In this document: positions 31,873 to 48,593 of the stretch, piece after piece
How the letters are laid out: every line of letters starts with the position of its first letter
Numbering within the stretch: the stretch's first letter is position 1
NCBI GenBank assembly: GCA_963813715.1
Contig: CAWFAK010000007.1
Location: forward strand, 320,001 to 384,000
Length of the DNA: 64,000 bases
Source of the DNA: an uncultured Planctomycetaceae bacterium
GTDB lineage: Bacteria > Planctomycetota > Planctomycetia > Planctomycetales > Planctomycetaceae
Reading direction: 5' to 3'
Translations under genes and position numbers: made by a program
Notes under the pieces: generated by a model
The model's input: only the letters and a program-made list of their open reading frames with translations
What the model was told of the DNA's origin: nothing
Databases searched by the model: none

Positions 31873-31959
31873 GGAGAGGTGACAGAGTGGCCGATCGTGC
31901 TGGTCTCGAAAACCAGTGTGCATGCAAGTGCACCGTGGGTTCGAATCCCACCCTCTCCG
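31873..31959 (+). tRNA. tRNA-Ser(CGA)
   Basis: Acceptor stem GGAGAGG/CCTCTCC, anticodon arm CTGGT-CT-CGA-AA-ACCAG, long variable arm, T arm GTGGG-TTCGAAT-CCCAC. CCA not encoded. Confidence 0.97.
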
Positions 31960-31972
31960 CTGCTCAAAGAAC

Positions 31973-32333: not shown

Positions 32334-33101
32334 TCAACGCGCGTTGGCGGGTTGCTCGTAGTGGGCGAGAAAAGCGCGCGGCTGCGGCAGGTCGTTCCGA
32401 ATCGCCAGCGCCTGCTTGAATTCCGCTTCGGCCTCGGCCTGGCGCTGGTGGGCTGCCAGGATTACGCCGACGTTCGAGTGGGCGGCTGCCGGACCTAGGA
32501 CTTTGGCGAACGCTTCATAACTCTCTCGAAACCGTTCCTGTTCGCCGAGTGCCAGCCCCAAATTCACCCAGGCGCGTTCGTGCTCCGGCGATTGGGCGAT
32601 CGCTTTGCGGAATTCTTCCTCGGCCTGGCGCCACTCGCGGCGGCGGTAATAGAAATAGCCGAAGTCGTTGCGCAAGTCGGCGTCATGCGGCGCGAGCTCC
32701 AGCGCCTTGCGATACTCCGTGAGGGCCCGCGTGTCATTGCCCTGCTGGTCGTAAAGCACGGCCAAAAAGCGACTGACTTGCTGGTCTCTTGGGTTCAGCT
32801 GACGCGCCCGCTCGTAAAGCAGGATCGCTTCCTGGGCGTCGCCGTGCGCTTGCAGCTCTTTGGCCGTCGCCAGACAAGCCTCGGCCGCCTGCTTCGGCGG
32901 CAGTGTATCGGCTGGCGGCGACGCGGCGCCGGTCGGTTCGCTCGGCGCGGGATCGGCGAGACTCGCGGACGAGAGGACAGGCGCGGCGCATCCGCTCAAA
33001 CCGCCGAGAACAATCAAGCCGGCCACGCAGAGGGCAATCGAGCATGGCTTGCCCTTCACGTTCGCCTTGTTTCGTGCTGAACCAATCACGTCAGTGCTCA
33101 A
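32334..33101 (-). CDS. TPR lipoprotein (TadD/pilotin-like)
   Basis: Lipobox LSGC and several TPR repeats. Last gene of the tad operon. Confidence 0.8.
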   Translation of the reverse strand: MSTDVIGSARNKANVKGKPCSIALCVAGLIVLGGLSGCAAPVLSSASLADPAPSEPTGAASPPADTLPPKQAAEACLATAKELQAHGDAQEAILLYERARQLNPRDQQVSRFLAVLYDQQGNDTRALTEYRKALELAPHDADLRNDFGYFYYRRREWRQAEEEFRKAIAQSPEHERAWVNLGLALGEQERFRESYEAFAKVLGPAAAHSNVGVILAAHQRQAEAEAEFKQALAIRNDLPQPRAFLAHYEQPANAR

Positions 33102-33149
33102 GATGAATGCTCAATCTGAAGGCTCAATCTGACAGTTCAACCTAACAGC

Positions 33150-33773
33150 TCAATACATTCCCATTCCGCCGCCGCCTCCGCCGACGCCTCCGCCCACACC
33201 GCCACCGAAGGATGTTCCCGCGCCAAAGCCGGCGCTGCTTGCTCCGTAGCCACCGCCACCACCGGGTGCGAGGCCTGGCGAGGCGGGTGAGCGATTGCCC
33301 AGACGGACAGCCTCAGTGCCTTGAAGGCCCTCGGCTTCGGAGTATCCCAGAATGACGCGTCGTTCGGGGTCGGGCGCTCCCAGCGTCGCGAGATCGGCGA
33401 TCACCCGCTGCTTCCGCAGTTCGTCCAGTTTCGTATCAGTCGATTTTTCGACGATGACTGGAAATGGCACGCCGCCCAACTGCTGCGCGATCGCGTCGAC
33501 GTGCCGACGACCATCGGGGCCTAAGTGATCGCCTCCCTCGAACCATTCATATTGGTAGATCACGAACTTGTCTTGTTCGGCACGAAGCTTCTGCGCGGTC
33601 TGCCATTGGCAGGAATAAGTGCCCGGCGGCTGCGGAATGGCCCCTGGTGGGATGTCCGCGCAGCGATCCGTTGGGCAGACCCATCCGGTTTCGTGGCATC
33701 CGGCCGCCAGCACGATTGCGAGCAGGATCGTCAGCCAAGCGGATGACTGCATCGTTGAGTGAAGATTTCGCAT
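33150..33773 (-). CDS. Lipoprotein in tad operon (positional equivalent of CpaD/RcpB)
   Basis: Lipobox LAAGC and a Gly-rich tail. Follows the secretin. Confidence 0.6.
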   Translation of the reverse strand: MRNLHSTMQSSAWLTILLAIVLAAGCHETGWVCPTDRCADIPPGAIPQPPGTYSCQWQTAQKLRAEQDKFVIYQYEWFEGGDHLGPDGRRHVDAIAQQLGGVPFPVIVEKSTDTKLDELRKQRVIADLATLGAPDPERRVILGYSEAEGLQGTEAVRLGNRSPASPGLAPGGGGGYGASSAGFGAGTSFGGGVGGGVGGGGGGMGMY

Positions 33774-33781
33774 GGCTCCCC

Positions 33782-35987
33782 CTATTGTCCGTTCCATTGG
33801 GGCGCCGACATCGCCGGCGACGGGTTCGACTGGGGGGCCATCACGGGCTGCGGCAACTGGGTGCGACCGGTCGTGGAGATTTCGTCGGGAACGGGAACCG
33901 GCTCGATGCCCGGCACCGGACCGCAGGCGCCGCCCTGCGGACAACAGTTAAACGTCTGGCCGTGAGCGCCGATGATGAAAATGTCGTCGCAATGTTCGTA
34001 GCGTTTCTGCCGCGCACAATCGGTGCGAACCGAACTGCGGTAGTCGTAGCTGCGGCGGCTCTCCAACCGATTGAGCAGGTAGAACTCGACGTCTCCTGGC
34101 TCGAACACGTCGGCGCCTGGGAGCTGCGGCGTCGCGCAGGTTTGTAGCGGATGGACCAATTCGGGCGTAACGAGAATCACGATTTCTTGCTCGCCATGAG
34201 ACGATTGGTTCTCGCCCGCGAGCGGCCCCAGTAAGGGCAAGTCGCCGAAGAACGGCACTCGGGCCGTCGTGGCGCCGAGCGTGGTCTGTGTCAGCCCGGC
34301 GACGGCGAACGTCTGTCCGCCGCGTAGCTCGACCGTCGTCTGGAATGTGCGAGAGTTGAGACCAGGAACGCTGGTCCCGGCCGTGCCGGAGCCCGCGCCG
34401 ATGGTGGCGCCCAATCCCGGGTTGAGCGTGCTCACCGTCGCCCCGACCTGCAGCCGCACTCGGTCGCGGTCGGTAATGAACGGAATGAATTGCATCTGCA
34501 CGCCGAAGGGAATGAAGGCGACGCCTTGTGACGTCGCGCCGAAGGCGACGGCCGCTGCCGGCACCGGGAACTCGCCGCCCGCCTGGAATTGGGCCCGTTG
34601 ACCGTTGAGGGCCACAACATTCTGCTCGGCCAGCGACCGGGCGAGATTGAGATTTCGCAGAGCTTGGATGGCCAGCGTGACTTTGCCGTTGTCGATGATG
34701 GCGGGCAGGTTGCCGCCGATCAGCTGGGCCGTCGTGCCCATTCCGGTCACGGTTGTGGGGATCAGGCCGCCGGTCGTGTTGGAGAAGACTGCCGTCCCGG
34801 CGGCATTGAGGACGCTGAAATCGAGCCCGATGCTGCGAGCCGCCGTGCGGCTGACCTCGGCGACCGTCACGCGAAGCATCACTTGCTGCTCGCCGGGAAC
34901 GCGGAGCAGGTTGACGACGTTCCGGTTCACATCCCGCAGCAGAAAATTCTCGAGACCTTGCTCCGGCAAGTTTCCGTTCAAGTCCGGCACGGCCGTCACG
35001 TTAATGTTGCCGACGGGAATCTCCGCCGCACTGCGTTCCCGCTCTTGCGATCGCGATCCGCCGGGAGCGTTGGCGGAAACGACGCGGAGGATGTTGGCCG
35101 CATCGACAATATCTTTTGCCTCACCGCTGACGACCAGCTTGTCGCCCAAGAGCGCGAGGTGAACGACGCTGTTGGGGAAGGCCTTGTTGATCTCCTTTTC
35201 GAGCGCCTTGTAGACGCGCGTCCAAGCGCTCCTTTTGCTCCGGATCGGGAATGACGCGCACGAGATAGCTCAGCACCCGCGTCTGCCCCGTGGCGGCATC
35301 GTTGAACCACAGATTCAACACGCTGCTGCCGACCTGGTGGCCGGTGATCGAAAGCTCGGTGGGCGTGATGATCGTGTCGGACACGATCCTCGGATCGGCA
35401 ATCTGGGTGCGCAGCGGTGCTTGCTTGAGCACCAGCACGCGGGGCCGTCCGACGACGAGGTCCAGCGTGTTTTCCGGATCGATCGTCCCGGCCACGAACT
35501 CTTTGAATCGGTCAAGCGTCGCGGCCGAAGGACGCGGCGTCGCGCCCGAGGCTCCCAGCAAAGGAAGTCGCACTTGGCTCGGGTCAAAGGCGCCGGGCTG
35601 TGTGGCAGCCCCCTCCGCCGCACCCGGCATTGAGGGATTGGGGAGGACCGAACCGGGCTGAGTGATCGTTGGAGGAACGGACGGCGCCGGCTGATTCGCG
35701 TCGAGCTGGCTCACCGCGGCGAAAGGCGCGGATTGCGAGGGCGCCGGGGGGATCGGCTGCGGCTGAAAGGGGAGCGGAGAGGCCGCCGCGCCACGCGTTG
35801 AACCGGGGACAGCGGCAATTGTCGAGTTTGCCCCGCTCGAAGACCCCCAACCTTGCTGGCCGAGGGTCGTCGACGAGCCCGCGAACGCGCCCCAAACCCC
35901 GACAAGCGTTGCCCCGAGCAGCGCGTGACGCAATGCCCCGGAGGCACGATGCGGGAAATCAATTGTTCGTCGAAGTAGGTTTCGCAC
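33782..35987 (-). CDS. cpaC: Tad secretin RcpA/CpaC (frameshifted)
   Basis: QIADPRIV...G.S.LNLW N-domain, QQVMLRVTVAEVSR, AGGEFPVP, TTVELRGGQT, VPFFGDLPLLG and VILVTPELV. Confidence 0.9.
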
Positions 35988-36187
35988 CGAGACGCCTGAC
36001 CAAATGGACTTGGGGAAGTCCCCCCGATTTGGCACTTGAGCCAAACTGTTGCTGCGTCGTGCGCCCGCGCCTGCGCGGGACCGCCCGGGTTGGTCAGACC
36101 GATGCAAGTAGACAAAGTATCGACCGGATAAGCGGGCGAACTTTTGCCGGTTTTGATGACATTTCCGATTGCGTCGTGGCGCCGACT

Positions 36188-36581
36188 CTAAGCCAGGAAG
36201 CGCACCGACTTCGGAAGTGGCCGACCCGTCGGACTTCGCGCGAAGCTGTGTCCCCGGGTCGAATTGTGGGCCGGGCGCGGCCATTTCCAGCACCGCGTGC
36301 GTGCCTCGCGGCGCGACAACTGCCCGCCAGGGTCGAACCCCTCGACGGACGGCAAGCACGCCGCCACTCTTGTCCAGCATGGCGAGATCGAGGGGAAACC
36401 GCAGGAAGCACGTATGGATCGAACCGCACGGAACGAGCAGCAGGCCACTTCCGACTTCGGGGGCCCGCCGGAACTGCCAGCCGACGAACCGCGACCAAAA
36501 GCGGTCGGCGATGTCGCAGTTTGCGACAACCACTCGACCCGTCGCGGCGTCGACGAGTTGCCACTCGCCTCGCGCGGTCAC
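36188..36581 (-). CDS. DUF192 domain protein
   Basis: ADRFWSRFVG, PCGSIHTCFLRFPLD and VLEM motifs. The end is inferred after a probable frameshift. Confidence 0.75.
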
Positions 36582-37506
36582 AGCGAGCGCCGTATGCTGA
36601 ACTGATCAGCCAGCCGGAAGAGGTCGTAGAACGCGGGCCCGAGCGTGAACAGGATGATCCCCGGCAAGAAGCAGATCACCAGTGGAAACAAGAGCTTCAC
36701 GGGCAAGGCCATCGAGAATTCCAGCGCTTTCTCCCGTCGGCGTTGCCGCAGGTCTTCGGCCTGGCTGCGCAGCACATCCGCGATGCCGGAGCCGATTTGC
36801 TCAGCTTGAACGAGAGCCGAGACCAAAATCGTGACGGAAGTCACATCGAGCCGCCTGGCGATGCGACGCAGGCATTCGACGCGAGGCCGACCGGCGAGCA
36901 CTTCGGCTTGGAACGTGCGGAATTCCTGCACGAGCGCGCGGTCGGGCGGGTTCGACCCGAGAATTCGATCGAGAGCCGCGTCAAATCCCAGCCCGGCCTC
37001 GGCCAGCGTCGCCAACAACTCGAGCGTGACTGGCAGGTCGCGTTCGACCTGGAGGACGCGAAGGCGGCGGACTCGGCGCACGAAGACCATCGGAATAAAC
37101 GCCACGAACAGCATCGCCAGATACGGGGCGATCAAGACGACGGGGTGCGCCAAGTTCTCGAATCCGCCCGGAATTTCTGCAATCGCCCGGTCGGCGGTCG
37201 CGAGCAATCCGCTTGCCCACGCGAAATATCCGAGCGTCCCACCAATCCCGAAGGCCACGAGGGTCGCAGCCACGAATCCGGCAACGGCGCCGGCGCGGCG
37301 GAAACCCGCGAATGCTAACCATTTCGTCAGAAATCCAGGGGTTGCCCGGACCGCAGCCATCGGTGGAGCGTCACCGGCATCGGACTGAAACAGGCGTCGC
37401 TGCACCTGCTGGCGCGCCGCAAAGTGTCGCACCAAGAGCGCAATCAGCACCAGCGCCACGAGCCAGGCCAGCGTTAATCCGTAAGTCAACACCGTGACAC
37501 TTCCAT
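36578..37506 (-). CDS. tadC: Tad inner-membrane platform TadC (T2SSF domain)
   Basis: LPVTLELLATLAEAGLGFDAAL, QAEQIG and KLLFPLVICFLP. Start uncertain (37492-37506). Confidence 0.88.
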
Positions 37507-37518
37507 CGTGTTCGCGTG

Positions 37519-38385
37519 TTAGATCTTGCTGCGGGTGATCGAGGCGGACCAGGCGATGCCGACCGCCTGCAGCAACACCGCGGCGGCCACGCACCAACTG
37601 CCAACCTCGGTGGATAAGAAACCGATCATTCGGGGCGGGTCGTTGCTCCACATCAAGAGCGCGATGAAATAGGTGATGCCCATCACCGCGAAAATCGACA
37701 CCCGGGCCTGCGTGCTCATTGCCCGCATCCGGCGCGAGAGCTCGATGCGGTCGCGGATTGTGCGGCCAACCGTGGCCAGCGTCGGAGCCAGACTGCCGCC
37801 GACCTCCCAATGCACCGACAGTGCCGAGCAGAAGAGCAAAAACGTCTCGAGCGGCACGCGCTCGGTCAGGCTACGGAAAACGGTCTGCGGGTCGTCGCCG
37901 AAATGGATCCGCCCCGTGACTTCGTCGAGCTGCTCGCGGAGTGGCGGCCGGGACTCTTGCACCGCGCTCTCCAGCGCTTTCGTCAATCCGGCTCCGGCGC
38001 GGAGCGCCCCGACCATCAAGTCAATCGCGTCGGCCAGCTGCACTTCGATTTTTTGGACACGGCGTTCGGCCAGCATCGCTTCAATCTGCCATCCTAAGAG
38101 GCCGACGACGAGCCCGGCCGTCGCGCTATAAACAGGCCTGAGTCCGACCGCGAGCCAGAGCCCGCCGGCCACTCCCGCACCGATAAGCCAGGGGATTTCG
38201 TAGTAGCGGCGCGAGAACGGACGCGCCTGACGCAGCTCGATCGCCTCACCGTCGGCTTCGCTGGCCGCGGCAAATGCCTGGTCGAGACGCCGCCGGGAAA
38301 TGTTCTGCCGCCGGGCGTCAAGCCAGAGGTAAAAGATCGCCGCGGCAGCGGCGAGGAAGATGAGTGTCGAAAATGCCTCAGCCAT
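37519..38385 (-). CDS. tadB: Tad inner-membrane platform TadB
   Basis: QLADAIDLMVGALRAG, EVGGSLA and IRDRI motifs. Confidence 0.9.
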   Translation of the reverse strand: MAEAFSTLIFLAAAAAIFYLWLDARRQNISRRRLDQAFAAASEADGEAIELRQARPFSRRYYEIPWLIGAGVAGGLWLAVGLRPVYSATAGLVVGLLGWQIEAMLAERRVQKIEVQLADAIDLMVGALRAGAGLTKALESAVQESRPPLREQLDEVTGRIHFGDDPQTVFRSLTERVPLETFLLFCSALSVHWEVGGSLAPTLATVGRTIRDRIELSRRMRAMSTQARVSIFAVMGITYFIALLMWSNDPPRMIGFLSTEVGSWCVAAAVLLQAVGIAWSASITRSKI

Positions 38386-39832
38386 CGGTTCGCACGCGCG
38401 GCTTTTGAAAGATTTCCAGGGGAACGGGAATGTCGCGCTCGCGCAGGTCCTCCACAAAACGGGGCAGGATGCCGGTCGCCACAAATTCCCCCGCGACGCT
38501 CTTGCCGCGGCGGCCCCGCCGCTCGAAGCGGAAGACGTCTTGCATCTGAGGCGTGGGCCCCTCCATGCCGGTGATTTCCGCGATCGTTTCGACGCGACGG
38601 ACGCCGTCCTCATAGCGTCGCACGTGCACGACGAGATTGAGCGCCGAGACAACCTGCTCGCGAATGGCCCTCGAGGGAAGGTCGAGTCCCGCCATCGAGA
38701 CCATGGTTTCCAAGCGGGCAAGTGCGTCACGCGGACTGTTGGAGTGAATCGTCGTCAAGCTGCCGTCGTGGCCGGTGTTCATCGCCTGCAGCATGTCGAG
38801 GGCTTCACCGCCGCGGACTTCGCCGACGATGATGCGGTCAGGGCGCATACGCAGGGCGTTGATCACCAAGTCGCGAGCCGTGATGCGGCCCCGGCCTTCG
38901 ACATTCGGAGGCCGCGTCTCCATCCGGACGACGTGTTCCTGATCGAGCATCAACTCGGCCGCGTCCTCGATGGTGACCACGCGCTCGTTGTTGGGCACCG
39001 CTTCAGCGACCGCGCCGAGGAATGTCGATTTCCCGGCCCCGGTGCCGCCCGAGATCAACAGGTTCTTGCGGAGCCGCACGGCAAATTGCAAACACGTCAA
39101 CATGTCCGGAGAAAACATCCCAAGCTGCATCAGGTCGTCGCAACGAAGCCGGCGCCGACCGAAGCGGCGAATCGAAAGCGTCGGGCCGTCGAGTGTCACG
39201 GGCGGAAGCGTGGCGTTCACGCGGCTTCCGTCGGCCAATCGCGCGTCGACCATCGGCGACGTTTCATCGATCCGCCGCCCGACTCGGGCCGCGATTCGCT
39301 GGATGATCCGCACGAGGTGATCGGTATCCCGAAAGCGGACTGCCGTTTGCTCGAGCTTACCGAACCGCTCGATGTAAACCTGGTCGTAGCGGTTGACGAG
39401 AATGTCGGTCACCGCTGGATCGGCCATCAACGGCGCGAGCGGTCCGACCCCGAGCGTCTCCTCCAAGAGGTCGTCGGCGAGTCCGCGGCGCTCGGCCTCA
39501 TTCAGTGGGACGTCTTCGGTCGCCAGCACGCGTTCGACGAACGCTCGGACCTCGGTCTCCAGGTCGGCTTCGCTCGCCCCCAGCAAGCCGCGCTCGTTGA
39601 TCTCATCCAGTAGGCGCTGGTGCAGCTCACCCTTGACCGAGAGGTGCTCCGCATAACCGGACCGTAAGGGGGGCGGCTCGGCGCGGACCGGCTCTCGAGC
39701 CGCGGTGGTCCCGGGGCGCTCGACCTTGATCCGCGACTTGGGGACGATATGCGTCGCGCGTGTTAACACAAGCCGCGACCGCACGCGAGCCTCGGTCTCG
39801 GTCGGTGCTGTCGGCTCTTCGTCAGGCGTCAT
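38378..39832 (-). CDS. cpaF: Tad assembly ATPase TadA/CpaF
   Basis: [31 protein letters not shown] and AMNTGHDGS motifs. Confidence 0.96.
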
Positions 39833-39844
39833 ACGGAATTCCCA

Positions 39845-41054
39845 TCACGCGTGCGGCTCGGACTCGGCCGTGTCGCCGCGCGCCGCTTTGCCGTTAAGTT
39901 CCGGCGAAGTGATCGAGAGCACCTCGTCGACAATTTCATTCAGCCGGGTGGCGCAGCGCGAGAGGGCCCATCCTCGTCCGACATACGGACGACCGAGGTT
40001 CGCGGCCGCGATTAGCCCGCGGCTATAGGGCACAACATGGTCGACGTCGCGACCGAGCCTGAGGGCGACGTCGCTGGGCTTCAGGCAGCCGCTGTGCCGC
40101 ACGTAGCGGTTGATGACGATGCGTTGTCGGTTTCGCGGGAAGCCGACGGCATCGAGCAGCGTCAGGAGTTTCGCAATTCCCAGGAGGGTCGGCACTACGT
40201 TCTCCAGCACAACGTAGGCCTGATCGCACGAATCGACGACGGCCATCGCCACGCCGTCAAACATCGGGAAGGTGTCGACAATCACGTAGTCGTAGGCTCG
40301 CCGCGACAGAGTCAGCACGCGCGAGATCAGATCGTCATCGACCTCGGCCGCGACCATAGCGTCCGGAGGAGCGGCCAAGAGATGCAGCCCCGACGAATGG
40401 GGCGTGGCGAGTTGACGAATGAGCATCTCGTCGAGCCGATCCCGCTCGCGGGCCGCGTCTGTCAGGGTGAGCGCCGGTTCCAGGTCCAGCAGCGCCGCGC
40501 ATACCCCCATCTGCAGCGACGTGTCCACTAACAGCACCCGCTCCGGATAGCGACGTGCCAGCCCGAGCGCAGTGTTAACCGCCAGCGTCGACTTGCCGAC
40601 GCCTCCTTTGTTACTGATAAAAGTCACGACCTTGCCCCAACGAGCGGGTCCGCTCGCCGCTTGGCGCCGGAAGCGCTCGATCAGCTGTCCCAGATCAACC
40701 GCGGAAATCGGACGGCGCAGAAAATCCCGAACGCCCAACCGCAGGGCTTCGATCAACAGGGCGCTTTCCGAGACGTCGTGTCCGAATAGTTCGGGGCGAA
40801 ACGCGGCCGCCGCGAGTGTCTCGGGCGAGACGGCGGCGATATCGGTCACGACGGCCTTCAGTCGCGACGAGATCCGAACCCATTTCAAGAATCGCCAGTT
40901 GCGGCCGCCGGCTCCGCGCGAGCTCGACGGCTTGCCGCGCGTCGGTCGCGCGGAGCAGCACCAGCCCCTCGGCCTGCGACCCCAGCGCCGCCTCGCACTC
41001 CGAGGTCACCTGGGGATCGGTGCCGACGATCAGAATTTGGAAAGGGCCGGGCAT
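39845..41054 (-). CDS. cpaE: CpaE/TadZ (receiver-like + ParA/MinD ATPase; frameshift near 40870)
   Basis: Degenerate receiver domain at the N-terminus, deviant Walker A KGGVGKS, and YDYVIVD. Confidence 0.88.
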
Positions 41055-41060
41055 TGGACT

Positions 41061-42610
41061 TTAGGGCTCGAAGTTCGGACCGAGATAGTGATTGGCGAGT
41101 GCTGGGGACAACAGGGACGCGGTCAGACCGACGTTTTCGTCGAAGAGTTGCTGAATGGTCGCCTGCCCAGCCAGTTGCAGCGCCTGTGGCAGAGCGGCGC
41201 ACGAGCGACGCGGAGGCATTCTCCGCGGCAATCCGATCGGCGGGCGCATTCTGGACGGTGTTCCACGGGGCAGTCAGTGACAACTGGCCCGTCGTGTAGG
41301 TCCACTGCACGAAGCCAAAGCCCACGATCGTCCGGGGCGTCGTCCCGATCGTGTCGTAAATCGGCACGTAAACATATAAGGTCGGCGCGACGCTCAGGGA
41401 CGAATCGCTGCCCGCTCCCGTATAAGTCTGGCCAACTGTCGTGAGCTGGCTGAAATTGGCGCCGACGATGCCTGCTTCCGTCGCGTTTGTGTTTGCGGTT
41501 CCGATGGGCGGCGCGAGGTTCGAGGTAATGACACCGGTAGCCGGGTTGACCGTTGCGGTATCGGTCCCGTTACTTGCGTTCGTCGCGTTGTTGAGACTGG
41601 CCCAATAGGTCGCCGTCAGCCCAAAGGGGGCGACGCCGCGAATCCCGTTCGTCGAATCCACGGCCCCGACCGACAACACGTGGCCAATTGTCGTCGTGGG
41701 CGTGCTCCCCGCCTGCGGTCGCAAGGGAATCGTACCGGCCGCGGCGATTGCCGTCGCGCGAACGGTAATACCCGACTCGACCGTCAAGCCACCGGTGCTC
41801 GACGAGCGGGCGAGCATTGAACCTCGGCCGAAGAGGAAGGTGATGGCCGGTCCGTTCGATGCCGTGCCGGTCGACGCCATGAAATCCTCGTTCGAACGCC
41901 TTAGTCGAGCGAGAAATCCTGTCTGAGTCGCGCGTACCGGTCACAGAACCCGGAGTAAAATCGCGGCGCGAGTAGTCGCTGCTTTCGTCGGCGGTCGCCG
42001 TCGGCGCATCGTAGGACGCATTCCAACCGTAGGCGCCGGACACCAGGTCCCCGTTGGGCGTGTTCGTCGTGTTGGGCTGCAGCGTCGGCTTGTAAACCGG
42101 CGGCCCCTCGGACGGCAGAGTGATCATGCCGGACAACTGATCGCCCATTGTGTTGGTGACCGAGGCGACGGGACCCGCCCCAAATTTCTGCAAGTCGCCG
42201 TTGGCCGGATTGAGATCGTCGTCGAAAGTGACGCGACACCAGGTTGCTCGCGGCGAAGCGTCGTGCGCCGTCGATCCAGGTCTGCCACGCGGGATTGGTT
42301 GGGTCGTACGGCGTGTTGGGTTGGGGGCCAACCTGATTGGTGAGAGCCTGCGGCAGGTTGGGGGGGGTGGTCCCATTCGGTCGCCAGGCTGCCGGCAGGT
42401 CGTCCCGGAAGCGCAGTCCATCGCGAGCGGCGCTATCTGCCGCGGTCTGCATTTGCATTTGAGTCAGCCGCGCCACGCCCATGTCGGCGACGAGCCCCGC
42501 GATGGCAAACGCCGCGAAGAGAAAGAACGCGAAAAAGACGAGCACGTTGCCGCGTCGTGCGCGGCAGTGCGGACGACCGTCGGTTTAAGTCGGTTGGGTG
42601 TGGTCGGCAT
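41061..42610 (-). CDS. TadG-like large pseudopilin (multiple frameshifts)
   Basis: RRGNVLVFFAFFLFAAFAIAGLVADMG...QMQTAADSAA, followed by a Thr/Gly/Asn-rich extracellular region. Confidence 0.75.
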
Positions 42611-42618
42611 CGCTGAGA

Positions 42619-43638
42619 TCACTGGCCTTTGGCTCCCGTCAGGTTGTCCCAAAGGGACCCGCCCGATTTTCGTGCGCTCTTAGCGAACGGCTGCACGGGC
42701 CTCGCCGCGGTGTGGCGAGAATAGTCGGGGAGCACGACTGATTCGCGCTTGTCGCCCGAGATCGCATCGATTGTGGCGATGTTCGCCAGCGGGTTGGATT
42801 CGACAGTTGCGATGCCCGGATCACCGGGCTGACCCGACCGCACCACGCAACTGATCGCGACGTCGGTGCTCAGCGCCTCTTGAATCGGCGCCACTTCTGC
42901 CGGATCGACAGCGATGACGACTTCCTCGACCGGCACCTTCTTGACAAACGATCCCTGACTGAGCGTGCGGGAGGTAATCGACTTGTCATGCTGAGTGAAT
43001 TCAATCAGGACGGCATTCTTGGCGAGCACCCGCACACGGGCCAGTTTTTCCATCTGGGCGATTTGCGTCTGCTGCATCAAGCCCTTCGACAGATTCCCGC
43101 TGCCCCTGGGCGCTTCGACGGGGACTGTGGCAGTCAGGTCGATGCGGTCTTGCTGCTCGAGGCCGGCGATGCCCTGAATCTTCGTGCGCTCGAGTGTCAA
43201 TGAGACCTTTCCCGGAGGAATCGCTCCGGACATGCCCGCCCGCGTCCCCTTCGGGAAGAAATCGCGCTCCGTGAAGAGGTATCGCGGGCCCTTGTCGTGG
43301 TTCAGCACGCGGCCGATCACCTCGTTCGTACTGAGCATGGCTTCCTTGGGGATTTCGCCCTCCGGGACCGGGACGAAGGCCCATTTCCCGGTTCTGGGAT
43401 CGATCAGATGGTCGCGCGTGATCTTCGTGTAAGCAGGGATCTTGGTCCAGCTGGCCAGAACCGGCACGTGACCCGGAGGAAGCTGGTCGCGATGAGAAAA
43501 CCAGGCTACGGGATCGACCTTTCCAAACGCCCAGAGCGTGCCCACGGTCCCTGCGGCAGCTAGCGGGACGAACAAACAGATCAACACGACGACAATCCAG
43601 CGCGAGGAACGCTGCGCGCGGGAGCGGGCGTAGGGCAT
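42619..43638 (-). CDS. cpaB: CpaB/RcpC-like SAF-domain protein
   Basis: N-terminal TM, SAF-like IPAYTKITRDHL...VIGRVL, IPPGK, G.....DRIDL. Located in the tad operon. Confidence 0.78.
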   Translation of the reverse strand: MPYARSRAQRSSRWIVVVLICLFVPLAAAGTVGTLWAFGKVDPVAWFSHRDQLPPGHVPVLASWTKIPAYTKITRDHLIDPRTGKWAFVPVPEGEIPKEAMLSTNEVIGRVLNHDKGPRYLFTERDFFPKGTRAGMSGAIPPGKVSLTLERTKIQGIAGLEQQDRIDLTATVPVEAPRGSGNLSKGLMQQTQIAQMEKLARVRVLAKNAVLIEFTQHDKSITSRTLSQGSFVKKVPVEEVVIAVDPAEVAPIQEALSTDVAISCVVRSGQPGDPGIATVESNPLANIATIDAISGDKRESVVLPDYSRHTAARPVQPFAKSARKSGGSLWDNLTGAKGQ

Positions 43639-43707
43639 GGTTCACCTCTTACGACGTGATCGAGCAAAAGTGGATTTGATCAAGATGGGAATTCATTGTT
43701 TGGCGCG

Positions 43708-44703
43708 TCAGGGACCAAAAACCTCGCGACGGATCACCGCCTGCGCGGACATGACGCGGCGAAAGGGCCGCACGGTTTGCAGGTAAAGCCCCATTTCGCC
43801 CATCCCGTAAGTGCCGCCGTACGGACCGGCGTAAGCGGCGCCCCCTTGGTTGTCGGGGGGCGGCGGATCGGGCGCGACGGGCGTGCCGCCTCCCGGAATC
43901 GCGTTCGTCGCCGTCACACCTGCGTCGTCGGCGAGCATGGGACTGCCGGCGGTCGGCTCCGCTTCGCCGTTGGCATCCAGCGCGGCCGGTTGATAGCCGG
44001 CCATCGTCGCAGCCTGAAACGGATAATTCAGCCGGACGGCAACCACCCCTCCGGGCATTCCGGACGGAGGCGTCGAGGCGACGCTGAAGGCTCCGTTGCC
44101 ATTGGAATCGGTGATCTCTTCCAAGACCGCGTGCCACTCGATCGTCTCCGGCCCCACGCCGGACGGGCTGACGACGAGCGGAACGGCCACCGTAAAGCCG
44201 CTGTAGCCGGGCTTGGGGGTTGTGGAAGTGCTCGTGATCAGGGCGCCGGGATAGCGCAAGAGCGGAACGCCGCCGACTGTGTCGGAAATCATCATCGGCA
44301 AGAGCGCCTGGTTCACCGACGGCAGCGTAATCCCTTGGGCGGCGAAGAAGTCGAAGATCGACTGGCCCGACTGCATGGCGCTGAGGTTGATCGCCAGATA
44401 ATTCGGATCGTAGACGCCGTCGATCACCTGCTGGTTGGCGAGTGCGTCGGCGAACGTGGCGGTCGAGGGCAACGGCACGCGGGACAATTCGCGGGCCGCC
44501 ACGTCGACCGCGGTTTGCAGCGTTTGCGTCCCGGTGAAGAGCCGACCGAATTCGACGATGGCCACGACAAGCAGGTAGATCACAAGGAAGATGAGCGCGA
44601 ACTCGAGCACAGCCTGGCCGCGGCGCCGAGTCGATTTCGCGTGTGCTTTGGCCACGCCGGTTTTTGGCAACCGGCGTGACGGCTCTTCACAACACCGACG
44701 CAT
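43708..44703 (-). CDS. TadE-like pseudopilin (long)
   Basis: RRRG|QAVLEFAL...EFGR...AARE motif. Confidence 0.85.
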   Translation of the reverse strand: MRRCCEEPSRRLPKTGVAKAHAKSTRRRGQAVLEFALIFLVIYLLVVAIVEFGRLFTGTQTLQTAVDVAARELSRVPLPSTATFADALANQQVIDGVYDPNYLAINLSAMQSGQSIFDFFAAQGITLPSVNQALLPMMISDTVGGVPLLRYPGALITSTSTTPKPGYSGFTVAVPLVVSPSGVGPETIEWHAVLEEITDSNGNGAFSVASTPPSGMPGGVVAVRLNYPFQAATMAGYQPAALDANGEAEPTAGSPMLADDAGVTATNAIPGGGTPVAPDPPPPDNQGGAAYAGPYGGTYGMGEMGLYLQTVRPFRRVMSAQAVIRREVFGP

Positions 44704-45115
44704 GATGCCAAAACTCCAAACGGACCAGGTAAGCCAAGAGACCGATTGCGATGGCGGGGACGTAGGCCAGATCGCGACGCCCGCGAATCACCGCGACGAG
44801 CGCCAGCACACCTCCCGATAGCGCGACCCAAAAGAGGGCCGACAAGAGCGCGAGCGGGCCGAGGGCCGCGCCCAGCGCGACAACAAGCTTGACGTCGCCG
44901 CCGCCGAAGCCGCCGAGAGCATAAAGCGGAAGCGTCAGCGCGAGGCCGAGCCCGGCTCCTAGCGCAAGTCCCGCCCACGTGACCTCCGTGAAGCCGGCCG
45001 CGATCGCCGCGACCGCGCAAACGACGAGCGCGGCCCCGATCCAGTCGGGCACCTCGCGCCGTCGCAGGTCGTAAACGGTGGCGACCAGGGTCAGTCCGAT
45101 CGCGATGAAAATCAT
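44687..45115 (-). CDS. cpaA: Prepilin peptidase TadV/CpaA (peptidase A24)
   Basis: YDLRRREVPD and GGGDVKL catalytic Asp motifs, and YVPAIA. Confidence 0.92.
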   Translation of the reverse strand: MIFIAIGLTLVATVYDLRRREVPDWIGAALVVCAVAAIAAGFTEVTWAGLALGAGLGLALTLPLYALGGFGGGDVKLVVALGAALGPLALLSALFWVALSGGVLALVAVIRGRRDLAYVPAIAIGLLAYLVRLEFWHHASVL

Positions 45116-45209
45116 GGTGTTGCTTGGGTTGCAGATGCGGTCACGTCGCGGAGACTCCCTGCGCCGACGGAGGCGCAGGGAGCCCGGTCAGGACGCGAAG
45201 GGGGTTACG

Positions 45210-45572
45210 TCATTGCGACTCGATAATCGTGCCACCGAGTCCGTTCGTCGCGTTGGGCGATTGCGCACCGTAGAGGTTGGTGCCGAGCCGATCCGTGCCG
45301 TCGTTGGCGAGGATCCCGACCGTGCTGACCTCGATCGCCTTGCCGGTCAGTCCGCCCGAAGTGTCGGTTTCAATCAAGTGGCCGCTGGTAATCGGGTTGT
45401 TGTCATCCTGATGAGCACCGGGCAGCAGGACGGCAGCCGCGTCCATCAGATCCGAGGTCTTGTGGCCGAGCAAGGAAATGCCAACCAGTGACACGATAGC
45501 GATGCCGGAGACGAGTAGGGCGTACTCAACGAGCCCCTGACCTTTGCGATCACGTGCGAGTCTGCGAAACAT
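45210..45572 (-). CDS. flp: Flp family type IV pilin with C-terminal extension
   Basis: MFRRLARDRKG|QGLVEYALL, the Flp G|xxxxEY motif, then a hydrophobic helix. First structural gene of the operon. Confidence 0.88.
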   Translation of the reverse strand: MFRRLARDRKGQGLVEYALLVSGIAIVSLVGISLLGHKTSDLMDAAAVLLPGAHQDDNNPITSGHLIETDTSGGLTGKAIEVSTVGILANDGTDRLGTNLYGAQSPNATNGLGGTIIESQ

Positions 45573-45916
45573 GAGAGCACCTTTCGAGGGAAAAGGAACC
45601 AAGGATGCAGGAAGAAGAACTAGGACGCGGATATCGTTAAAACCGTCTCGCCTCCGCCGCGATTTCGGCGCGGGGCTGCGGTCTGACCAACCATTCGCCT
45701 CGCGCTAGGCGCACACGGAGACGAGAACGGCGTTGCAGCAATGGTCTCGGTACGCGGCCGTTGATGAGTCAGTCGACGCAGACCGAAGCGACGACTAGCT
45801 GCCGGAGGCGGGGAGTCCCCTGAATCTCCGGATCCCACTCAATTCGCGCAACAGCAATCGCAATTGATCTGCGCGAAGCAACGAACCTTCAGTGGGTGTG
45901 CCGCGACAAGAGAGCG

Positions 45917-46285
45917 TCAGGCGCAGGGAGGCGGACGCGGACCCGCAATGCCGAGGGCAAAGACTGCCACGATCGGCGGGAAGAAATGCGGCGGCGCGGG
46001 TACGACGGCTTGAGTCAGCTCGCTGCCGGCGATGGTCGCCGCAATCTGACCTTGCGCCTGGAACTGGCAAATCGGGCAAGTGTCGGCATCGTGGGCATAG
46101 TCGACAGCGTCCGCCCGAAGGGCAGTCGACGGATCACTGGCCGGCACTGCCTCAGAGGCGATGGCACGCACCGCATGCTCGTGCTCGCAGCCCAACAGCT
46201 CATGCAGGCCCGGCCCCAACAGCATCATCCCCGTGTAGAGGACGAGCATGCCGGCTACGAAAGCTCGTTTCGGGCGAACCAGCAT
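45917..46285 (-). CDS. DUF2946/CruR-like leader protein (TM, His-rich, CxxC, C-terminal RPPP)
   Basis: Hydrophobic N-terminus, LHELLGCEHEH, HDADTCPICQF, C-terminus GIAGPRPPPCA*. Confidence 0.78.
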   Translation of the reverse strand: MLVRPKRAFVAGMLVLYTGMMLLGPGLHELLGCEHEHAVRAIASEAVPASDPSTALRADAVDYAHDADTCPICQFQAQGQIAATIAGSELTQAVVPAPPHFFPPIVAVFALGIAGPRPPPCA

Positions 46286-46330
46286 CGGGCAGAATCCACC
46301 AAAAATGCCGCGGCGCAACTCAATCGCAAG

Positions 46331-46345
46331 CGCAACTAAGTTGCG
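46331..46345. promoter_or_regulatory. Palindromic operator CGCAAC-TAA-GTTGCG (candidate Fur-family box)
   Basis: Perfect 6-3-6 inverted repeat abutting the -10 box, nested in a wider AATCGCAA/TTGCGATT repeat. A Fur-family gene is divergent from it. Confidence 0.7.
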
Positions 46346-46374
46346 ATTATGGAAACACTCCTTTGCGTTGTCAA
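46346..46374 (-). promoter_or_regulatory. sigma70-type promoter TTGACA-N17-CATAAT driving the leader-tad operon
   Basis: Minus strand -35 TTGACA (46374-46369), 17-nt spacer, -10 CATAAT (46351-46346). Confidence 0.85.
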
Positions 46375-46571
46375 CGAGATTCGGGGACGGTCTCGATCAA
46401 TTTGTCGCAAGTTTTTCTGGAGCAATCTTGCGGCAAATTCATCGAAAGTGCCAAGGCGAGCGCCGTTTGCTAAACTGCATGGCGACCAACCATTCGAAGA
46501 CCTGCCTCCGCGAGCGATCACCGACCGTCCGCGGGTAGCCGGGCCTTCGCCGTTCGACAAAAAGCGGTCTC

Positions 46572-47015
46572 ATGACATCCACCAAAGCCAGTGGTGAGCG
46601 CGAGGCGCTGTGCGCTCGCATGCAGGAATTCGGTCTCCGCTGTACGGCCGCGCGGCTCGCGGTCCTGGGAGAATTGCAACGCTCGACGAGTCCGCAGAGC
46701 CACGCGGACATCGCCCGAGCGCTCGCCCCTTTGGAACTCGACCGCGCGACGGTTTATCGCAATTTGATGGAGCTGAGCGAATCCGGCCTCGTGTCGCGAC
46801 TCGACTTGGGCGACCACATCTGGCGATTTGAGCTGCGGAAAAACGGCCAGGGCGACCTGGCCGAACACGCCCATTTTCTCTGCACCGAGTGTGGTCAGGT
46901 CTCCTGCCTCGACGGCGTCGAAATTCGTGTCACTCCGACCCCGCGGCGCAAACGCTCGTCGCTCGGCAACGTCACCGAAATCCTGCTCAAGGGCCGGTGC
47001 GTGCGTTGCTCCTAA
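46572..47015 (+). CDS. Fur-family metalloregulator (Zur/Fur/Nur-like)
   Basis: LRCTAARLAVL, DRATVYRNL, EHAHFLCTECG and C-terminal CVRC. Confidence 0.93.
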   Translation: MTSTKASGEREALCARMQEFGLRCTAARLAVLGELQRSTSPQSHADIARALAPLELDRATVYRNLMELSESGLVSRLDLGDHIWRFELRKNGQGDLAEHAHFLCTECGQVSCLDGVEIRVTPTPRRKRSSLGNVTEILLKGRCVRCS

Positions 47016-47228
47016 GGAGCACGTCAGCAGTTGGTTGGCCAATGCTGCTCAGCGATCGCAGCCTTCGATGACGTTGGATTTTCCCGAATTGATCCGAATC
47101 TGAATCTCAATCCAGATTCGACCTTTGTCAGAATCCCTGCTCCGGGATCTCGGCGGCAGCCGAATCTGCCTCAGCCGCGAATCAAGCGACTCGAGCAGCC
47201 GAAAGTTTCCGATTGACGCCGGCCAAGA

Positions 47229-48593
47229 TTACCACCGGAGAATTACGTCCGTGGCGACTGTGAACAGGCTGTGCTTGTCCTCGAAAGGACGGGAGTCTGC
47301 GTTGTAGTCGTAACGCAATTCCGGCCGCACGACGATCCACTTCCAAGGCTTGAACGACAAGCCCGCGGTCAAGTCGGTGTAAAGGCCGGCGAAGCCGGTG
47401 CGTTGCCCCTGCTCGTCGTCAAAGAATTCCAGTCGCGTGGTGCCGCTCAGCCGCGGCGAGAACTCGTAGATCAAATAGTTCGGGAAGCCGATCCAAGTGG
47501 CCGTGCCAATGTTGGGAACGTCGGTCGTCAGGCCGAACAGGCTCTCGAAGTTGTACGTCAGCTTATTGCTGAATTTGTGCGTGTAGACCAGATCGAGCAC
47601 CTCGGGGTTGTCGTGATTGTAGGCTTGTAGGTAGCGACCCGAACCGAGAATCACGTTGAACAACACGCTGTCGTTTTGATCCTTTGAGGTCCATTTCACG
47701 CTGCCGATGAACGTCGGGGTGGCCGCTGGATCGATGAAGACGTCGCTGCCCGTCACGAGCCCGGCCTGCAGGGTCCAAGCGTCGGAGAGCTTGGTCGTCG
47801 TCAAAATGCCGGTGTGCGTAAACGGATCGTACAGGTCGGTGTAGGCGTGTGAGAACAGGGGCGTGTTGATCGTGTCGGTCGTCTCCACGCCATACTGCGA
47901 AAAGAAGTGCCCAATCTTCACATCCATGCCTTGGGCGATGCTGGGAAAATAGGCCTCCCCATAGAACTGGATCGGGTCGATTCCGTAGAGGTTCGGACCG
48001 CCGTGATCGTCAGTGAGCTGTCCGCTGAAGAGTCCTCGCGCCAGCGTGAACCGATAGTCTGATCCAGGCAGAATGGTGTCGGACCGGAAGCCAAAACTCG
48101 AGTCACTGCTGTTCGTATCAACGGGCTGATCGATGCGCAACCAGTTTTGATCGAGCAAGAAGTTGTTTGCCAGATAGTTGAAACCCAGAGGCAAATTGAT
48201 GCTGCGGTCCGTGCTGCCGGTAAAGGACATATCGGTCCAGCCGTAGATCTGGATCCGGTTGTCGGCGAGAAACGAGCCAAGCGAGGTTCCCCGGAGGGAG
48301 CGCATCAAGAGCCATTCGTCCGTGGCGGGTTCGGCAGGCGGAGCGGAGGTTGGTGCGTCGGGATTTGCAGGCGCTTGGGCCTGAAGTGACGCGACCGCCG
48401 ACTCCAGCGAAATCTGCGTTACCGGAAGCGCCGAATCGCTTTGATCCGATCCGCCGTCGCGATCCTCGGCCGGCAAGAGCCTGGGTCCGCAGGCCAGCCA
48501 GGCGCCGAGAAGAGCGCGCAGGATGAGACGGCGCACGGCCGGTCGATCATGACGGCTTTGAAACACAACGAAGATATCGGTTGCCCGCTGCAC
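47229..48593 (-). CDS. Outer-membrane beta-barrel porin (DUF1597/BBP2-like)
   Basis: Signal region, IYGW, DVKIGHF, PFTHTG and RPELRYD motifs, terminal aromatic W. Confidence 0.82.
   Translation of the reverse strand: MQRATDIFVVFQSRHDRPAVRRLILRALLGAWLACGPRLLPAEDRDGGSDQSDSALPVTQISLESAVASLQAQAPANPDAPTSAPPAEPATDEWLLMRSLRGTSLGSFLADNRIQIYGWTDMSFTGSTDRSINLPLGFNYLANNFLLDQNWLRIDQPVDTNSSDSSFGFRSDTILPGSDYRFTLARGLFSGQLTDDHGGPNLYGIDPIQFYGEAYFPSIAQGMDVKIGHFFSQYGVETTDTINTPLFSHAYTDLYDPFTHTGILTTTKLSDAWTLQAGLVTGSDVFIDPAATPTFIGSVKWTSKDQNDSVLFNVILGSGRYLQAYNHDNPEVLDLVYTHKFSNKLTYNFESLFGLTTDVPNIGTATWIGFPNYLIYEFSPRLSGTTRLEFFDDEQGQRTGFAGLYTDLTAGLSFKPWKWIVVRPELRYDYNADSRPFEDKHSLFTVATDVILRW

Follow-up and report, generated by a model that had tools for sequence, protein, structure and literature searches.

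The window analyzed here is a 64,000-nucleotide (nt) stretch of DNA from an uncultured Planctomycetaceae bacterium (GCA_963813715.1, contig CAWFAK010000007.1, forward-strand positions 320,001-384,000), taken from the 7.49-Mb assembly (G000) of a planctomycete called soil-dwelling. Unless another contig or locus is named, positions are those of the window, whose GC fraction is ~0.59-0.68 in 2-kb windows. Codon-position GC together with Pfam and NCBIfam matches delineates a co-directional minus-strand gene row, running from 46285 to 32334, that encodes a Tad/Flp pilus and is headed by a small leader open reading frame (ORF). The 122-residue leader is followed by flp, an A24 peptidase, a TadE-like, a CpaB-like and a Tad/TadG-like gene, a 331-residue ORF, CpaE, CpaF/TadA, two T2SSF genes, a protein combining DUF192 with a pilus-formation N-terminal domain, a secretin, a 264-residue ORF and a TPR protein (Table 1). 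A Fur-family metalloregulator gene diverges from the leader promoter, at which a palindrome lies. An earlier note on this DNA had described the divergent fur gene, promoter, palindrome, leader and tad genes, and every element that it listed is present, with only fur on the plus strand; its gene list likewise holds in order, except that the ORF at 40885-41880 had been omitted.

Table 1. Features of the leader and pilus locus, with positions in the window and the basis of each assignment
Feature	Position	Strand	Basis or remark
Fur-family metalloregulator gene, 147 aa	46572..47015	+	PF01475 51.7 bits (cut-off 23.1), helix-turn-helix matches; divergent from leader promoter
13-mer CGAATGGTTGGTC, first copy	46484..46496	-	fur-leader spacer; conserved only where fur is adjacent
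Sigma70-like promoter TTGACA-17-CATAAT	46346..46374	-	11/12 matches
Perfect 7-1-7 palindrome CGCAACTtAGTTGCG, candidate Fur-family operator	46331..46345	.	abuts -10
Leader ORF, 122 aa + stop	45917..46285	-	conserved start ATG 46285 (longest ORF 45917-46318)
CPIC codons (residues 70-73), candidate metal-binding CxxC	46067..46078	-	invariant in 20-sequence and 22-sequence alignments
RPPP codons (residues 117-120), candidate arrest motif	45926..45937	-	43 residues past CPIC
C>G composition bubble, possible Rho-utilization region	45885..46030	-	78-nt sliding window, C minus G up to +0.17
~95-nt structured element, candidate cis-acting RNA	45637..45731	-	16-bp closing helix + two inner helices
13-mer CGAATGGTTGGTC, second copy	45685..45697	-	core of ~95-nt element
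flp pilin, 120 aa	45210..45572	-	weak Flp_Fap 16.1 bits (cut-off 32.2) + Class_IIIsignal; congeners keep the gene
Prepilin peptidase (CpaA/TadV type)	44687..45115	-	Peptidase_A24 61.8 bits
TadE-like pseudopilin, 331 aa	43708..44703	-	PF07811 39.5 bits
CpaB/RcpC-like	42619..43638	-	TIGR03177 44.2 bits (cut-off 71), PF16976 20.7 (28.8), both below
Tad/TadG-like pseudopilin	41901..42545	-	PF13400 30.4 bits
331-aa ORF	40885..41880	-	no Pfam or NCBIfam match; tblastn 48-96% identity in operons of congeners
CpaE/TadZ-type ParA/MinD-like ATPase	39845..40888	-	AAA_31 63.1 bits
CpaF/TadA secretion ATPase	38378..39832	-	T2SSE 208.9 bits; TIGR03819 346.9 bits
Two T2SSF platform genes (TadB 37519-38730, TadC 36578-37810)	36578..38730	-	PF00482 62.2 and 57 bits
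DUF192 + pilus-formation N-terminal domain protein	35121..36581	-	PF02643 34.8, PF13629 44.1 bits
Secretin (CpaC/RcpA type)	33782..35149	-	PF00263 122.5 bits
264-aa ORF, possible lipoprotein	33150..33944	-	lipobox-like ..LAAGC after hydrophobic stretch; no family match (Pfam, NCBIfam)
TPR protein (TadD/PilW-like), last gene of the operon	32334..33101	-	TPR families; TIGR02521 88.9 bits, below cut-off

The leader protein carries the features expected of a regulatory nascent chain. Its N-terminus, a basic n-region (R4, K6, R7) with a hydrophobic stretch of ~20 residues, is signal-anchor-like in sequence and hydropathy profile, and the protein contains LHELLGCEHEH and ends in ...GPRPPPCA. The earlier note had spoken of a His/CxxC protein ending in RPPP; the His and Cys residues and the RPPP are indeed there, with two further residues, C-A, between the prolines and the stop. 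We compared the locus across 11 congeners, seven of which keep the leader protein at 48-92% identity and with an RPPP or RGPP ending. All of 25 database homologs are unnamed, and none carries a Pfam domain. An alignment of 20 homologs holds invariant the start Met, the hydrophobic N-terminus, LH..GC, D.CPICQF and a PR(P/G)PP that is followed by two residues; the 43 residues separating CPIC from the Arg are free of indels. Across 22 diverse planctomycetal leaders, one His, both Cys and R-x-P-P are invariant and a second His nearly so. Searching the leader profile against 1.84 billion representatives retrieved 217 relatives, and among the 148 listed and analyzed, 139 have RxPP within 15 residues of the C-terminus (RAPP in 85, RGPP in 50 and RPPP in 2); in these 139 the spacing from CxxC to RxPP is 43 residues in 115 and 44 in 18. 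DUF2946 was the sole family found when 74 of the 148 were scanned with Pfam (27 at E ≤ 0.01, eight at or above the cut-off), and hhalign aligned the leader family with those eight DUF2946-positive proteins at 99.8% and E = 1.5e-28 over 116 columns, a comparison to be read knowing that the eight had themselves been retrieved with the leader profile. The profile homology, the CxxC, the fixed spacer and the RxPP support the assignment of the leader, on sequence grounds, to a divergent branch of the DUF2946 (CruR/CutF) family and make it a candidate arrest peptide; the earlier note's DUF2946-type designation stands in that form, whereas the Pfam model itself finds no match.

The promoter that the earlier note had placed divergent from the Fur-family gene matches the sigma70 consensus at 11 of 12 positions, and the site at 46374..46346 is the sole sigma70-like one in 45000-47300, where shuffled sequences yield 0.4 ± 0.6. 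Its -35 and -10 hexamers are invariant in all eight genus loci, a term that we use for the loci carrying the leader. The abutting 15-mer palindrome, with its center left free, occurs just twice in the 7.49-Mb genome, and its exact core occurs four times, the copies outside two leader promoters having transposase-like or unremarkable neighbors. (The other exact 15-mer copy, CGCAACTgAGTTGCG, lies near position 112700 of contig C15 amid transposase-like ORFs, and nothing was identified downstream of it.) The palindrome is kept in congeners with fur and has decayed in G003, the sole leader-bearing genome without a Fur ortholog; in congener G008, boxes flank fur on both sides, one of them divergent and the other before a leader of the C9 type described below. 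Beyond the genus, the box stands before Pirellulales leaders (TTGACG-17-TATTCT-aaa-TGCAACTtGGTTGCA at locus L030 and, with one mismatch, at L029) and upstream of leaders in G038 and G012; the box sequence can be written (T/C)GCAACTnAGTTGC(A/G). In two other genera, Fur homologs of 47-49% identity adjoin ZIP transporter genes (91 and 81.7 bits) whose promoter regions hold the palindrome TGCAA(C/G)-N3-(A/G)TTGCA, in one case with an HMA P-type ATPase opposite. Conservation, co-occurrence with Fur and the presence of the same box at other leader promoters and at ZIP promoters thus support the Fur-family operator that the earlier note had proposed, and the palindrome appears to behave as the operator of the divergent protein. 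From this genomic context, namely ZIP genes fronted by the box beside Fur homologs of two other genera, the regulator is read as probably Zur-like. Its protein has two CxxC pairs (C104/C107 and C143/C146). Another inverted repeat, with 22-nt arms that are 86% complementary across a 9-nt gap (46393-46445, just upstream of -35), was rejected as an operator because only the window and its closest relative, G002, have it. At locus L041 (G356), a canonical Fur-box-like palindrome, TGATTATCGATAATCA, lies ~50 nt upstream of the leader start and overlaps the -10 of a leader-to-DUF1559 unit, so the Fur-family box on such leaders may vary from lineage to lineage.

Two features stand out in and around the ~345-nt spacer that separates the leader stop (45917) from the flp ATG (45572). 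The first is the C>G bubble, which covers the last third of the leader ORF and reaches ~30 nt into the spacer. The second, absent from the earlier note's account, is a genus-specific structured element of ~95 nt that is near-invariant in 8/8 genus loci, its conservation exceeding that of the leader protein. The consensus fold has 34 pairs, four with compensatory double changes and very few broken, and a covariance model built on it gave one match per genome, at 110-126 bits, solely in the eight leader-bearing genomes among 101 relatives searched; three other matches score just 23-30 bits. An Rfam scan of 44500-47500 at E ≤ 1 returned nothing. The core of the element holds one copy of the 13-mer CGAATGGTTGGTC, whose only two copies in the 7.49-Mb genome stand at this locus in the same orientation and which could be a second protein-binding site. 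Similar motifs were seen in the spacer at contig C8 (GTGAATGGTCAGATCGGCCGCA) and in the leader 5′ regions of loci L041 and L042 (GCGACTGGTCGG(C/A)CGC). A sigma54-type reading of the 13-mer was dropped on inspection by eye, the GG-to-GC spacing being one base too long, as was an antiterminator pairing of the RPPP codons with the 3′ arm of the element, for which the RGPP congeners lose complementarity.

Regulator, leader and pilus genes tend to travel together. Fur ortholog and leader are both present in six of the 11 congeners and both absent from four, with the leader alone in G003. The four congeners that have neither leader nor Fur (completeness 65-96%) yielded no TadE ortholog either, and for that reason Fur, leader and tad appear to form a single accessory module that is acquired or lost as a whole. 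The synteny of fur, leader and flp-tad, which the earlier note had set as a test, recurs in congeners and is not unique to this contig. In G010, the leader and the element are followed by a DUF1559 prepilin in place of flp, which suggests that the leader-plus-element unit is a portable cassette placed before pilin-type genes. At the G003 locus (L014, 10709-11856), from which fur has been lost, a pair of IS3-like transposase ORFs adjoins the tad leader on its upstream side. These IS3-like ORFs, and the exchange of tad for DUF1559 in G010 (L019), are signs of recombination between leader-headed loci.

Leaders of this type extend well beyond the genus. A narrow leader profile matched eight of 401 sampled Planctomycetota genomes and a broader one 56 of the 401, in 38 of 288 genera; a search of genome contigs for related loci returned mostly the same genus and two Pirellulales loci. 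To see what such leaders precede, we scanned with Pfam, at the 29 best loci of other genomes, the longest same-strand ORF starting no more than 700 nt past the leader. DUF1559 with an N-terminal methylation (prepilin) motif follows the leader in 8/29, ZnuA in 4/29 and a TonB-dependent receptor, an ArsP permease and DUF58 in one locus each; the remaining 14 genes have no family above cut-off, one of them being DUF58-like by motif and about ten secreted and coiled-coil-like; several of the leaders before the latter end in IRPPP plus seven residues. The window genome has 57 DUF1559 matches, and because DUF1559 makes up roughly one gene in a hundred by our estimate, 8/29 is far above chance, with the qualification that related genomes are not independent. 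Prepilin-type genes were thus the commonest assignable partner of such leaders among these Planctomycetota loci, and they tie the leader family to pilin-type proteins well beyond this contig. The earlier note had pictured a pilus machine filling the slot of a metal transporter; a pilus operon does stand behind the leader, but it is no one-off, given the prepilins behind eight other leaders. The ZnuA, TonB-receptor and permease cases, for their part, link the leader family to metal uptake in the phylum, zinc being the best guess from such neighbors. In six loci from genomes of family f40 (L109, L110, L114-L116 and L118), the leaders end in ..FTIRPPP plus seven residues and precede a conserved secreted coiled-coil-like protein without a Pfam family, a further output class that goes with the RPPP variant. 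Two more loci lie outside the 29-locus sample. L029 combines three type IV prepilin-like genes with a T2SSE ATPase; at L030, where the contig ends, the N-terminus of one gene product is DUF1559-like and prepilin-like, by sequence only.

The window genome itself holds two further leader-like ORFs. The one on contig C9 (~245222-245690; L049, 7223-7690) has AAATAAT + TGCAACTcAGTTGCA upstream, which is the same box at the same place as at the tad leader; it encodes 131 very His/Cys-rich residues (..HALHDH..CFAC..RGPPA-stop) and precedes DUF58-like, transglutaminase and MoxR genes, as its equivalents in G008 and G280 precede DUF58-type, transglutaminase and MoxR genes. The one on contig C8 (49582-51726; L048), upstream of which no box was seen, ends in ..CFAC..CRGPPGAC-stop and precedes a DUF1559 prepilin and a 112-residue membrane protein, the same pair that follows the tad-type leader in G010.

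From the anatomy, homology, conservation and association of box, regulator and leader described above, we lean, at somewhat better than even confidence, towards the tad/flp operon being the output of a two-part metal-responsive switch that combines a Fur-family operator with an arrest leader. The functional steps of that switch (binding by the repressor, stalling of the ribosome and metal binding), as well as which metal acts and in which direction, are inferred, as follows. The metal-loaded Fur-family protein would sit on the palindrome and block the single promoter; because the repressor is probably Zur-like and zinc-responsive, transcription would be expected at metal scarcity. On release of the repressor, the leader would be translated, its nascent chain targeted to the membrane by the N-terminus, and the ribosome would pause at R-P-P-P two codons before the stop, with the His/CxxC part outside the tunnel, where these invariant residues may bind metal. 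The ribosome paused on the C-rich 3′ end would decide whether transcription escapes Rho- or structure-dependent termination in the spacer, and hence whether flp and the 13 genes behind it are expressed. The sign of the response could follow either of two precedents: with CruR, metal releases arrest and expression is off, and with CutF, metal induces arrest and expression is on. The two layers of metal control proposed in the earlier note are supported by the comparative evidence to this extent, with a zinc context (ZIP, ZnuA) rather than the copper of CruR.

Several results count against this reading of the leader and its regulator. Pfam DUF2946 (PF11162, gathering threshold 23.7 bits) leaves the leader unmatched even at E ≤ 10, a six-frame PF11162 scan of the genome gave no match at the leader locus, and an NCBIfam scan of the leader gave no usable match. 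RPPP is a rare variant among the listed relatives, and it is absent from the main text, as accessible, of the study of RAPP-type peptides by Fujiwara et al. (PMC12992588), where the mutagenesis concerns RAPP. A DUF2946 leader would be expected as the first gene of a metal-homeostasis operon, and the leader is a first gene, but that of an operon encoding a Tad pilus. As to the regulator, the NCBIfam equivalogs Fur, PerR, Irr and Zur all stay far below their cut-offs (NF008646, Zur, scores 17.5 bits against 167), and a PDB sequence search, in which Fur and PerR entries match at E ~1e-8, failed to separate Fur, PerR and Zur. The box lies within 1.5 kb in just three of 14 loci around Fur homologs of other genera, a genome-wide scan with a relaxed or generalized box found no enrichment over shuffles, and the ZIP genes of the window genome have no full box. 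The fold of the spacer element is little better than that of shuffled sequences (z = -1.77). Finally, the synteny within the genus partly reflects simple descent of a single island.

The alternative that best survives holds that leader and pilus are separate transcription units, with the Fur-family protein controlling only a small Cys/His membrane protein and the spacer element acting as a terminator and/or as a non-sigma70-consensus promoter of flp with regulator sites such as the 13-mer. The ~345-nt spacer, twice that of cruR-bfrG and far exceeding those of systems that unmask a ribosome-binding site (RBS), is in its favor, as is the stable long helix that is followed by UUUU in five of eight genomes and could end the leader transcript. 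In addition, one CGAATGGTTGGTC copy lies upstream of the leader promoter, outside the leader RNA, where a DNA site fits better than an RNA motif. Set against the helix and U-run, the run is not conserved (CUUC in two genomes) and the helices contain compensatory changes; the lack of U-run conservation, together with the fold z-score of only -1.77, weakens the reading of the element as a classical intrinsic terminator. As for a separate flp promoter, a consensus scan of 45000-47300 found no second sigma70-like site in the spacer, but planctomycete promoters are poorly known and such a scan could miss one. The leader-plus-element unit of G010 precedes a different prepilin gene, and leader relatives elsewhere consistently precede a same-strand gene, both of which count against separate units.

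RNA libraries bear on the same question. Seven metatranscriptome runs hold parts of the window in unstranded, low-depth contigs for which DNA carry-over is possible. In run X1, one 1489-nt contig (45035-46522) covers the 5′ end of cpaA, flp, the spacer, the leader, the promoter and ~150 nt beyond; with a depth of 4.5, no strand information and ~150 nt upstream of the predicted promoter, it may also reflect DNA carry-over or other transcripts, which reduces its weight for a joint transcript. A 274-nt contig from run X3 bridges the ~95-nt element and the flp start, whereas runs X2-X4 otherwise gave short, patchy contigs in which uncovered stretches are uninformative. The X1 contig, running from leader through spacer to flp, and the X3 contig, joining element and flp, speak, weakly, against separate units and are compatible with leader-flp cotranscription. 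The cotranscription assumed in the earlier note accordingly has in its favor the want of a second promoter-like site and one bridging contig, itself weak evidence. Taking both sides together, we consider separate units unlikely.

A second alternative is that the leader is an arrest peptide sensing not metal but the capacity for export or membrane insertion, or the periplasmic thiol/disulfide state, and so licenses prepilin synthesis. Its signal-anchor-like N-terminus would suit such a monitor; classical RAPP peptides monitor Sec/YidC components, the CutF model, in its accessible description, has disulfide formation by its cysteines, and the partners (Flp, type IV prepilins and DUF1559 prepilins) are all membrane-inserted substrates. 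What makes this distinctly improbable in our view is that invariant His accompany the CxxC, with the C8/C9-type paralogs very rich in both His and Cys, that a Fur-family box would co-regulate the unit, that related leaders precede ZnuA, TonB-receptor and ArsP-type permease genes, and that both characterized family members are described as responding to copper. A third possibility is that the leader works as a plain membrane protein of small size that binds metal, or helps the pilus as an accessory protein or chaperone; its gene would then be just the first structural one in the operon, and its C-terminal prolines would have no regulatory import. The blindness of the Pfam model, the conservation of the leader as a protein and a branch known from sequence alone sit well with this view. 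It is nonetheless the least credible of these alternatives, given that R-x-P-P keeps a constant spacing to CxxC and lies 1-7 residues before the stop in 139/148 relatives, that RxPP is reported to be strongly avoided in bacterial proteomes save in small C-terminal regulatory peptides (PMC12992588, accessible portion), and that the downstream genes vary (pilus, DUF1559, ZnuA, TonB receptor) around a fixed leader architecture, which fits a portable regulatory cassette.

The two-part switch has partial precedents, cited here from the accessible text of the papers concerned. CruR (Bp2923) of Bordetella pertussis, encoded by a DUF2946 upstream ORF, is recognized by a CXXC that is followed, after a spacing of 45 ± 1-2, by a RAPP three residues short of the C-terminus, is not complementable in trans and carries the same C>G bubble signature, or rut region; its usual partners are TonB-dependent transporters and PepSY_TM proteins, and "a few" Planctomycetes homologs are mentioned (Roy et al. 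2022, PMC9426467). Like cruR, the leader is a small first cistron with an export-like N-terminus, a CxxC, a spacer of ~45 residues (43 here) and R-x-P-P 2-3 residues before the stop, and it shares the long spacer to the next gene, the C>G bubble at its 3′ end and homology at profile level. It differs in having RPPP (RGPP in some congeners) rather than RAPP and no Pfam match, in a spacer of ~345 nt as opposed to 162 nt that includes a conserved structured element, in a 14-gene pilus operon instead of a TonB-dependent transporter, in a zinc rather than copper context and in a dedicated Fur-family operator on the same promoter. CutF of Rhodobacter capsulatus, also of the DUF2946 family, stalls on GPPPRL (Ozturk et al. 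2023, PMC9973294; 10.1101/2025.02.05.636593) and resembles the leader in its Cys motif and in a run of three prolines near the C-terminus (GPRPPPCA here); it acts only in cis as a first gene, and the leader is a first gene too. CutF combines a CxxxC with a short stem-loop masking the RBS of the next gene, whereas the stall site here would lie ~345 nt from the flp start, which makes direct RBS unmasking unlikely. Like the RAPP/RGPP arrest peptides ApdA, ApdP and SecM-like proteins, for which diverse downstream functions have been proposed (Fujiwara et al. 2025, PMC12992588), the leader is a small secretory or membrane protein with a C-terminal RxPP upstream of a same-strand gene.

None of these sources, as far as their accessible parts go, describes a pilus as the output. 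The CruR paper contains no pilin or pilus words; CutF neighbors comprise metal efflux, TonB-like, PCuAC and HupE/UreJ genes, and "PILIN" turns up in that paper solely in a figure legend, as a signal-peptide class; and no pilus, pilin or Flp product appears in the main text or nine of the ten supplements, some only partly searchable, of PMC12992588. The searchable parts of the DUF2946-paper supplements have no pilin, DUF1559 or Flp entries, and their full neighbor tables may hold such cases. More generally, we found no described system in which tad/Flp is under Fur/Zur control, an arrest peptide precedes a pilin or DUF1559 prepilins are controlled in this way, with an entry in a supplementary table still possible.

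Zur and Fur regulons typically have a Fur-family repressor gene divergent from a promoter with a 7-1-7 inverted repeat at -10/+1. The present locus resembles them in its divergent gene and 7-1-7 box and in homologs that stand beside ZIP genes with the same box; the box is GC-richer than classical Fur or Zur boxes, and, unlike in those regulons, the clear targets in the window genome are leader-headed operons and not transporters.

The regulatory principle, a DUF2946 arrest leader and a Fur-family box, is therefore a known one; what is new is the output (pilus and prepilin genes), the probable metal, the box sequence and the added lineage-specific structured element. DUF2946 arrest leaders are a recently discovered means of copper sensing and have so far been tied to transporters and detoxification enzymes in Proteobacteria. 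If the proposed switch is real, it would extend this mechanism to another phylum and probably to another metal, provide a new class of output in a whole pilus machine and prepilin-type proteins, and stack an arrest peptide on a classical Fur-family operator. The arrangement suggests that pilus production in these bacteria is tied to metal, probably zinc, supply. It also gives a first concrete, testable handle on what controls planctomycete pili and on the role of the dozens of DUF1559 prepilin-like proteins per genome, and it supplies two candidates, a regulator box and a cis-acting RNA element, for tests in cultured relatives.

A broader proposal, which we advance tentatively and regard as possible though rather improbable, is that planctomycetes repurposed metal-sensing DUF2946-type arrest peptides and a Zur-like repressor on the TGCAACTnAGTTGCA box to control prepilin-type surface proteins. 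Their targets would comprise Tad/Flp pili (in this genus) and clusters of type IV pilin genes, with members of the very large DUF1559 family (Pfam SBP_bac_10) as the chief output. Starvation for zinc or another metal would then call forth filaments or pilin-anchored binding proteins that serve metal capture or attachment to metal-bearing surfaces, and the lineage-specific structured RNA between leader and pilin gene would be an attenuator that senses the stalled ribosome.

The pilus genes themselves are largely conventional. Tad/Flp (type IVc) loci are exemplified by cpa of Caulobacter and tad of Aggregatibacter, and the gene set here matches theirs in a putative Flp-type pilin, A24 peptidase, TadE/TadG, CpaB, CpaE, CpaF, TadB, TadC, secretin and TPR protein. 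The A24 peptidase, TadE/TadG, CpaE, CpaF/TadA, two T2SSF, secretin and TPR matches are all above Pfam cut-offs, with CpaB alone below. Unlike in those loci, the mature pilin is long and there are an additional DUF192 fusion, the 331-residue ORF and the arrest-peptide-type leader. The Flp processing motif K-G/QGLVEY is evident in the sequence, the Flp_Fap match being weak and below cut-off, and would yield an unusually long mature pilin of ~109 residues. Because the TadB and TadC ORFs overlap, their true starts are uncertain, and Table 1 gives the longest ORFs.

A tRNA-Ser (CGA) gene at 31873-31960 abuts the distal end of the operon, directly past the last tad gene; this neighbor, together with the pattern of presence and absence across congeners, suggests that the fur-leader-tad block is an island-like accessory module. 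Just past the tRNA lies a 480-residue ORF (29990-31432, minus strand) with weak STAND-NTPase/AAA_16 matches below cut-offs. At the other end, a BBP2 (OmpL-like) beta-barrel porin gene (47229-48593, minus strand, 168.6 bits) is convergent with fur.

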